Below, in pieces: positions 7,936 through 9,217 of a DNA stretch of 39,749 bases (position 1 is the first letter of the stretch; the number at the start of each line of letters is the position of its first letter). The notes below the pieces were generated by a model. It made no database searches and was not told where the DNA came from. It worked only from the letters and a program-made list of their open reading frames with translations. The stretch comes from a virus (taxonomy: Duplodnaviria; Heunggongvirae; Uroviricota; Caudoviricetes), in IMG/VR virus record IMGVR_UViG_2541047827_000012; one strand, 5' to 3'. A program made the position numbers and the translations under genes.

Positions 7936-8008
7936 CAGAACGGCGGCACAGGGATGTGCCTTTAAATAATTCTGTACAGATTGCAGACCGGGGGTGAATA
8001 GCGTACTA

Positions 8009-8023
8009 TTACCTTAAAGGTAA
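8009..8023. promoter_or_regulatory. Operator-like palindrome TTACCTTAAAGGTAA overlapping a putative promoter
   Basis: Perfect TTACC-N5-GGTAA; putative -35 TTGCAG (7981-7986) and -10 TACTAT (8004-8009) with 17-bp spacing put the site over the -10 and start of the 8050 operon. Confidence 0.55.
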
Positions 8024-8049
8024 ACCATGTGTTTACATGAGGAGGAGAT

Positions 8050-8259
8050 ATGGGATTTTGGTTCGCTCGTACAAAAACGAGGGATAATGCACCCAGCCCT
8101 CAGGCAAAAAATGCAGAAGTTCCGGCGTCAGCGCAGGTTAACAAGCGTGGTGGTGTGTATATCTCATCACAGCAAATTTCTGAGCTTCCTGAGGTTAAGG
8201 AGATGCGTCGTCTCGCTGCTGCAATCGTTAAACAGGATCTTGCCACTGTAAGGAAATAG
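8050..8259 (+). CDS. Hypothetical 69-aa protein, first gene of accessory operon
   Basis: Strong SD GAGGAGGAG 6 nt before ATG 8050; stop overlaps start of the next gene. Confidence 0.5.
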   Translation: MGFWFARTKTRDNAPSPQAKNAEVPASAQVNKRGGVYISSQQISELPEVKEMRRLAAAIVKQDLATVRK

Positions 8260-9125
8260 TGTTGTTAGCTCTTCTAATTATCCCCATTCTGGTTAGTGGT
8301 TATATTATGATAACCGCTAACCAGTATCATTATTTCCGTTTATACCGACATGAAGGCCAGCTTCTTTATATGAAAGTAGCTGCATTAGGTACATATTGCC
8401 TTGTTGCTTCGGTAATAATTGCCGCATTTATAAAATATAAATATCCTGATTTTCACCTAGTTCACGATATGGTGGAAACTTTTAATGTAACGTCAAAACC
8501 AGAAACAGATAGAATTTACATGTGGCTGCTTCTTCTCTCAGCCACATCCATTTGCTTCTCTTTGTGTTATGTGTCTGTTGTGTGGGTGAAAGATTTTCTT
8601 CTTGGTTGTTTTTATAAACGTGATATTTATGAGCAAAAAACAGAGGCAATGAAGGCCAGAGTACTGCGAAAAACTTACTCGCAAGGTTCTTTAGACTTAC
8701 TATTGCTTGATGCTATTGAATCGGATCCTAAACGACCAATGCTGATTACTTTATCATCAAACAAAGTGTATGTTGGAATAATAAATGGTTCTGGTGAACC
8801 AACGGAAAATCAGGGTCCGCATCAGCACATATCTTTTGTTCCTTTAATGTCAGGATACAGGAACAAAGACAACTTATCTGTCACATTCACTAATGCTTAT
8901 CCAGGAGAAATACAGGTCAAGCGGACTGCAGCAATAAGAGGAATTAGCAGAAAGAAAGTGCCAGGACTTGAGATCATGGTGTCTATTGACGAAATAAGTT
9001 ATATATCATGGTTTGATTTTGAAGTATATAAAGCAACAAATAACAAAGTAGAATCCAGGGGGCACGTTATTCGTGTTACCAAAAATGGAAGAAATATATA
9101 TCAAAGAAATAGCAAAAAAGAATAG
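8259..9125 (+). CDS. Membrane-anchored protein of unknown function (N-terminal TM helices plus 160-aa soluble domain)
   Basis: GTG start at 8259 overlapping upstream stop (SD AGGA 8251-8254); about 3 hydrophobic helices in the first 110 aa; markedly AT-rich versus flanking phage DNA; followed by a terminator. Confidence 0.6.
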   Translation: MLLALLIIPILVSGYIMITANQYHYFRLYRHEGQLLYMKVAALGTYCLVASVIIAAFIKYKYPDFHLVHDMVETFNVTSKPETDRIYMWLLLLSATSICFSLCYVSVVWVKDFLLGCFYKRDIYEQKTEAMKARVLRKTYSQGSLDLLLLDAIESDPKRPMLITLSSNKVYVGIINGSGEPTENQGPHQHISFVPLMSGYRNKDNLSVTFTNAYPGEIQVKRTAAIRGISRKKVPGLEIMVSIDEISYISWFDFEVYKATNNKVESRGHVIRVTKNGRNIYQRNSKKE

Positions 9126-9145
9126 CCCGCGCTGCGGGCTTTTTT
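9125..9145 (+). terminator. Rho-independent terminator after the membrane-protein operon
   Basis: GCCCGC-gct-GCGGGC hairpin followed by TTTTTT. Confidence 0.6.
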
Positions 9146-9217
9146 GTGGACGAAACAAAAGCCAGTGCTACACTCATTGACGCCACATTGAGGTGGCTTA
9201 TAGATGGAAATTTCACA

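Follow-up and report, generated by a model that had tools for sequence, protein, structure and literature searches.

An exchangeable gene pair of phiV10-like E. coli prophages represents a large, unnamed family with a predicted membrane-anchored Sm-fold protein

A two-gene cargo in a variable prophage slot

Two adjacent genes encoding proteins of 69 and 288 aa lie beside the ant gene of an E. coli prophage, within the 39,749-nt stretch of viral DNA analysed here (IMG/VR record IMGVR_UViG_2541047827_000012; hereafter the window). Both are conserved: the small-gene product matches phrog_5739 (E = 7e-52) and the large-gene product phrog_3630 (E = 6e-114). The two reading frames proposed in an earlier note on this DNA are real. 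The locus comprises the following features.

7981-8009, + strand: promoter-like sequence TTGCAG-17 nt-TACTAT, found by eye; inside the conserved left flank and outside the cargo
8010-8022, no strand assigned: 13-bp palindrome TACCTT-A-AAGGTA in the conserved flank, the 'operator' of the earlier note
8025-9119, + strand: exchangeable cargo, between the points where similarity to sister phages ends and restarts
8039-8047, + strand: Shine-Dalgarno sequence GAGGAGGAG of the small gene, just 5' of its ATG; a strong ribosome-binding site
8050-8259, + strand: small partner gene, 69 aa, ATG start
8259-9125, + strand: large gene, 288 aa from GTG at 8259 or 287 aa from TTG at 8262
8259-8594, + strand: predicted membrane part of the large protein, aa 1-112, from hydropathy and from helices in both AF2 models
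8289-8324, + strand: mRNA hairpin inside the large ORF (codons ~11-22), with a 15-bp stem, a 6-nt loop and -22.5 kcal/mol
8691-9044, + strand: cytoplasmic domain of the large protein, aa 145-262, modelled as an Sm/LSm/Hfq fold
9124-9146, + strand: intrinsic terminator AGCCCGC-GCT-GCGGGCT followed by a T-run (hairpin at 9124-9140, then TTTTTTG)

The small-gene stop codon and the large-gene start overlap as TAGTG, with AAGGA at 8250-8254; together with GAGGAGGAG upstream of the ATG, this agrees with the strong ribosome-binding site and translational coupling described earlier. TTG at 8262 is an equally plausible start for the large gene and fits the family N-terminus better. A GC content below that of the backbone, previously ascribed to the whole operon, is found in the large gene (36.1%) and not in the small gene (48.1%, against 48.8% for the window), so that the large gene alone is AT-rich. 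The small protein is basic (pI 10.4) and has no transmembrane (TM) segment; its short N-terminus (MGFWFAR) is hydrophobic and basic and is followed by a polar linker, then by a C-terminal module (aa ~29-62, QVNKRGGVYISSQQISELPEVKEMRRLAAAIVKQ) that is conserved, and the protein has no match in Pfam, NCBIfam, PADLOC or the PDB.

By its sequence, the phage is a phiV10/epsilon15-like (Uetakevirus) E. coli prophage. Over 20 kb, its backbone shares 98% identity with phiV10, the O157 typing phages 9 and 10 and phiv142-3 (genus Uetakevirus), and is therefore not P22-like, as had been supposed. Consistent with this, when 50,697 phage records were searched by tblastn with the 288-aa protein (E ≤ 1e-3), ten records were returned and no P22-like phage was among them; those matched were phiES15, a Klebsiella P2-like phage, SEN4/5 and two Pseudomonas phages. 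The slot lies between ant and a 54-aa gene, with the tailspike gene on one side and a virion-protein gene on the other, and the pair is encoded on the strand opposite to the late genes. The viable sister phages phiV10, phiv142-3, TL-2011b and ZX5 all do without the pair.

Alignments place the cargo boundaries precisely: similarity to sister phages stops at 8024/8025 and resumes at 9119/9120, and the flanks up to 8024 and from 9120 (terminator included) are ~95-98% common to phages with different cargo. The signals around the cargo (promoter-like region, palindrome and terminator) are thus features of the slot, and the promoter and operator previously assigned to the unit are not its own. The left flank with the promoter-like sequence shows little or no difference in TL-2011b and phiv142-3, both of which carry other cargo, and the palindrome is degenerate in TL-2011b (TACCTCAAGGGTA), which makes the evidence for an operator weak. 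An intrinsic terminator does exist, as claimed, but as part of the conserved right flank, which TL-2011b and phiv142-3 have in common with the window. The sequence at 7981-8009 is the best promoter candidate found by hand and matches 7 of 12 consensus positions; a sigma-70 scan of 7936-8049 reported no promoter. With this weak sequence as the sole candidate, transcription of the cassette may be read-through from ant.

At least one slot flank, and in many cases both, was matched in 472 of 5,426 complete E. coli genomes, only 28 of which carry the present cargo. In other E. coli prophages the slot is taken by a YafO-family toxin preceded by a small ORF (an arrangement seen in many sister prophages), by a DUF4760 protein or by different small ORFs. 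Where the right flank alone matched, the annotation includes a DUF2335 gene. The variable slot and its alternative cargoes, along with relatives in recognised accessory and defence positions of other prophages (below), support the view that the two-gene region is a horizontally exchanged accessory unit, as first suggested. Because its flanks are fixed and its cargo interchangeable, the phiV10-like slot is easy to mine and to swap experimentally, and offers a practical test bed for both.

The large protein and a hairpin in its gene

Three hydrophobic helices were found at the N-terminus of the large protein by hydropathy and in the models, in agreement with the TM helices noted previously, and are followed by ~170 soluble residues. 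The membrane part consists of TM1 (2-20), a cytoplasmic loop (21-33), TM2 (34-58), a variable periplasmic loop (59-86) and TM3 (87-112). Judging by hydropathy and by the charges of the loops (+1.4, -1.0 and +2.3), the protein is predicted to reside in the inner membrane with an N-out/C-in topology. TM1 and loop 1 (LLIPILVSGY ... RLYRHEGQLLY) average 2.7 and 2.4 bits of conservation, compared with 0.9 for the periplasmic loop, and are conserved to the same degree as the core of the soluble domain, suggesting that this region is more than an anchor.

The soluble domain, in which no nameable motif had been seen, has an Sm/LSm/Hfq fold according to two independent AF2 models (pLDDT 73.6 and 87.9). 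In these models an N-terminal alpha-helix (145-154) precedes a strongly bent, five-stranded antiparallel beta-sheet (161-165, 169-178, 190-201, 208-213 and 239-251), and a variable, low-confidence insert of 23 residues (216-238) comes before the last strand. K169, Y171, S198, G199, R201 and Y214 are invariant among 84 diverse family members. Sm1/Sm2 or Hfq sequence signatures were not detected, with none of the 84 members matching the LSM, Hfq or WYL models at E ≤ 0.01. The large protein itself had no Pfam match at E ≤ 0.1 and none in NCBIfam, PADLOC or PDB sequences, and a Foldseek search of the BFVD viral models produced nothing significant (best E 2e-3, TM 0.3). The earlier note had held that a structural match to a known virion or lysis protein would speak against its reading; none was found for the large protein, so this objection does not arise. 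We also considered shuffling of the Sm domain between architectures and rejected it, as the extra length of longer family members lies solely in periplasmic or linker regions, and short members resemble fragments.

The hairpin at 8289-8324 is more stable than expected from a synonymous-codon null in most Enterobacterales homologues (z from -3 to -7). Five of its pairs have changed on both sides, and none of 500 shuffles reached the observed covariation score in Enterobacterales. G-U pairs are frequent, which indicates selection on RNA rather than DNA structure. The hairpin was not found in distant family members and corresponds to no Rfam family. In the window and its closest relatives, the hairpin region is predicted to pair with the Shine-Dalgarno sequence and start codon; we rejected such sequestration as a family-wide feature, as it is present only in close relatives. 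An RNA hairpin that covaries within a coding region is a separate, small regulatory puzzle.

A widespread family and its genomic settings

In E. coli, the window region represents a large family of gene pairs that has no name in any annotation resource we used. A profile search with the large protein retrieved representatives of 2,333 clusters (50% identity) when the cut-off was E ≤ 1e-3, and of 897 when it was E ≤ 1e-10; most of these sequences are full length. In 59 of the 65 loci examined, the large gene was immediately preceded by a homologous small ORF of 60-90 aa, at a spacing of -1 to +63 nt (-1 to +20 nt in most). Loci without it were mostly truncated, Arsenophonus pseudogenes or the two most distant members. 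In E. coli, the close cluster is widely distributed, with some members labelled O25b:H4 (ST131) by their sources. Searches of Pfam, NCBIfam, PADLOC and PDB sequences with 84 family members gave nothing meaningful; under PADLOC 2.0.0 neither window protein matched, and one of the 84 had a marginal match to AbiEii (E 0.009). Neither protein is listed in the DefensePredictor supplements, and a literature search by accession, PHROG identifier and descriptors found no paper on either.

Relatives of the pair occupy a variety of settings. Two, in Yersinia L022 and Klebsiella phage ST15-OXA48phi14.1, lie in the moron and defence hotspot of P2-like phages between gene A and the portal gene Q (PMC9122126, PMC3573123). 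Copies in phiES15 and a Citrobacter prophage are at int-attP or adjacent to an integrase gene, and others are carried on IncC and other Salmonella plasmids. In a Pantoea element with integrase and relaxase genes, the pair adjoins OLD-TOPRIM/UvrD (Gabija-like) and bSEFIR genes. A bSEFIR gene lies close downstream of the pair in two independent elements; the Klebsiella and Pantoea homologues have no PADLOC match themselves, and their neighbouring genes match bSEFIR. Copies in Symbiopectobacterium, Brachymonas and Bowmanella have housekeeping genes as neighbours, and neither mobile nor defence genes lie within 4 kb of them. In all, ~9 of 14 distinct contexts show an association with defence, an anecdotal count rather than a statistical enrichment. 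GC content is lower than that of the surroundings in the window and in most other contexts examined.

Possible functions and relation to known systems

Because the family is often found where mobile elements keep their anti-phage genes, the pair is a good candidate for a defence module. The reading we favour, at a little below even confidence and from genomic context, is that it is mobile cargo (a moron) encoding a new defence or toxin-antitoxin-like module with a membrane effector. It would shield the lysogen from other phages, either by excluding superinfection or by abortive infection, through a membrane-effector logic akin to that of toxin-antitoxin systems. The large protein would expose the RLYRHEGQLLY loop and the Sm-fold domain to the cytoplasm, where the 69-aa product may be its obligatory partner. 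As Sm and Hfq proteins do, these domains could form a ring, here beneath the membrane, and the invariant Lys, Tyr, Arg and Tyr residues might bind nucleic acid, a nucleotide or the partner. The TM1-loop-TM2 unit would then act on the membrane, either permeabilizing it or blocking the entry of incoming DNA, and the small protein would keep the effector inactive or sense the trigger. The hairpin, which in the closest relatives is also predicted to pair with the ribosome-binding site and start codon of the large gene, could make synthesis of the large protein depend on translation of the small ORF.

A bolder form of this proposal, which we consider possible and rather doubtful, is that the family constitutes a new, widespread class of immune module, in which an Hfq-like ring tethered by three TM helices senses phage nucleic acid or loss of the partner and opens or blocks the membrane. 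If this were so, it would be the first case in phage defence of a membrane effector with an Sm fold for its sensor. Even a less specific role in defence or exclusion would add ~2,300 clusters to bacterial immunity, spanning prophages, plasmids, integrative elements and chromosomes in several phyla, and a new architecture, a membrane-tethered Sm/Hfq-fold domain under the control of a micro-protein. The wide spread in E. coli, including the O25b:H4 (ST131)-labelled members, could then matter for host range in phage therapy.

Three other explanations were weighed against this reading. The pair may be a toxin-antitoxin or addiction module, with the small protein as a labile antitoxin and the membrane protein as a toxin, which would stabilize the carrier element and affect phages only incidentally. 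The small gene comes first and is tightly coupled to the larger one in most loci, YafO-family toxins with a small upstream ORF occupy the same slot, the pair is carried on conjugative IncC plasmids and an integrase/relaxase element, and the predicted RNA structure would restrict independent translation of the large gene. Neither protein, however, matches a known toxin or antitoxin family. Assignment of the small partner to the AbrB/MazE-type antitoxins (motif 'GxGxVxIPxxEI') was rejected, hhalign giving a probability of 2.3% over 13 columns. Many copies are, moreover, chromosomal and on no element that needs stabilizing, and the prophage hotspots and bSEFIR or Gabija-like neighbours suit defence better. 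We regard addiction as the main role as unlikely; the two roles are compatible.

Alternatively, the large protein could be a factor of lysogenic conversion or host physiology, that is, a membrane-tethered, Hfq-like binder of RNA or a ligand that alters the envelope, the stress response or RNA handling. The classical RNA-binding role of the Sm/Hfq fold, the invariant Lys, Tyr and Arg residues, the chromosomal housekeeping neighbourhoods of some members and the wide distribution of the E. coli cluster, O25b:H4 (ST131)-labelled members included, would all fit. The patchy distribution, low GC content, cassette-like exchange and repeated siting in defence-gene hotspots fit poorly, as does the lack of detectable Sm1/Sm2 or Hfq signatures, and we think this explanation quite unlikely. 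A function in the phage life cycle, as a holin- or antiholin-like lysis regulator or a helper of DNA ejection or of the Ant/immunity circuit, is highly improbable. Its attraction lies in the predicted three-TM, N-out/C-in topology, which is that of class I holins, and in the site beside ant between tailspike and virion-protein genes. At 288 aa, with a domain modelled as folded in the cytoplasm and a location outside the lysis cassette, the large protein does not fit a class I holin; an annotated sister prophage encodes a holin and an endolysin of its own at the corresponding site past the tailspike gene, and sister phages are viable without the pair. The pair is also present on plasmids, an integrase/relaxase element and chromosomes without phage genes, and the large protein gave no structural match to a virion or lysis protein.

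Several known systems share part of this arrangement. P22 SieA, like the large protein as predicted here, is an inner-membrane protein whose gene lies in an accessory block of a temperate podophage, close to the tailspike and virion-protein genes and oriented against the late genes. We know of no Sm-fold domain or micro-protein partner described for SieA, and the tblastn search of the phage collection, with no P22-like phage among its ten records, gave no sign of homology of this type. In MscS channels, three TM helices in an N-out/C-in arrangement lead into a cytoplasmic, Sm-like beta domain, which assembles as a heptameric ring. The architecture predicted for the large protein is similar; no Pfam MS_channel domain was found in it, nor any structural match that covers TM3 and the beta domain. 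In type II toxin-antitoxin operons such as YafNO, itself a cargo of this slot in sister prophages, a small upstream gene overlaps or abuts a larger one, as here, whereas the present pair has no detectable relation to known toxins or antitoxins and its putative toxin is a membrane protein.

Membrane effectors of abortive infection include lambda RexAB, CBASS Cap15, with its TM segments and beta-barrel ligand sensor, and the TM effectors of Pycsar and Thoeris II. The pair resembles these in its prophage and defence-hotspot sites, its operon with a partner gene and a cytoplasmic beta-domain that, judging from context, possibly receives a signal. It differs in having no PADLOC homology, no cyclase or TIR gene and a partner of only 60-90 aa. 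Another system of this kind, AC1 of P2-like phages, consists of TM, TM and TIR proteins (Rst_2TM_1TM_TIR; PMC9122126). On gene content, membership of an AC1-type system is not supported, as the window cassette contains no TIR gene and the TIR genes beside two homologues are stand-alone bSEFIR. With respect to its modelled fold, the large protein is closest to the Sm, LSm and Hfq proteins, to which the WYL sensor domains of BrxR, CapW and DriD are related. Its sequence fits none of the Pfam models for LSM, Hfq and WYL, and the protein adds to the fold a conserved three-TM module, a variable 23-residue insert and a micro-protein partner.

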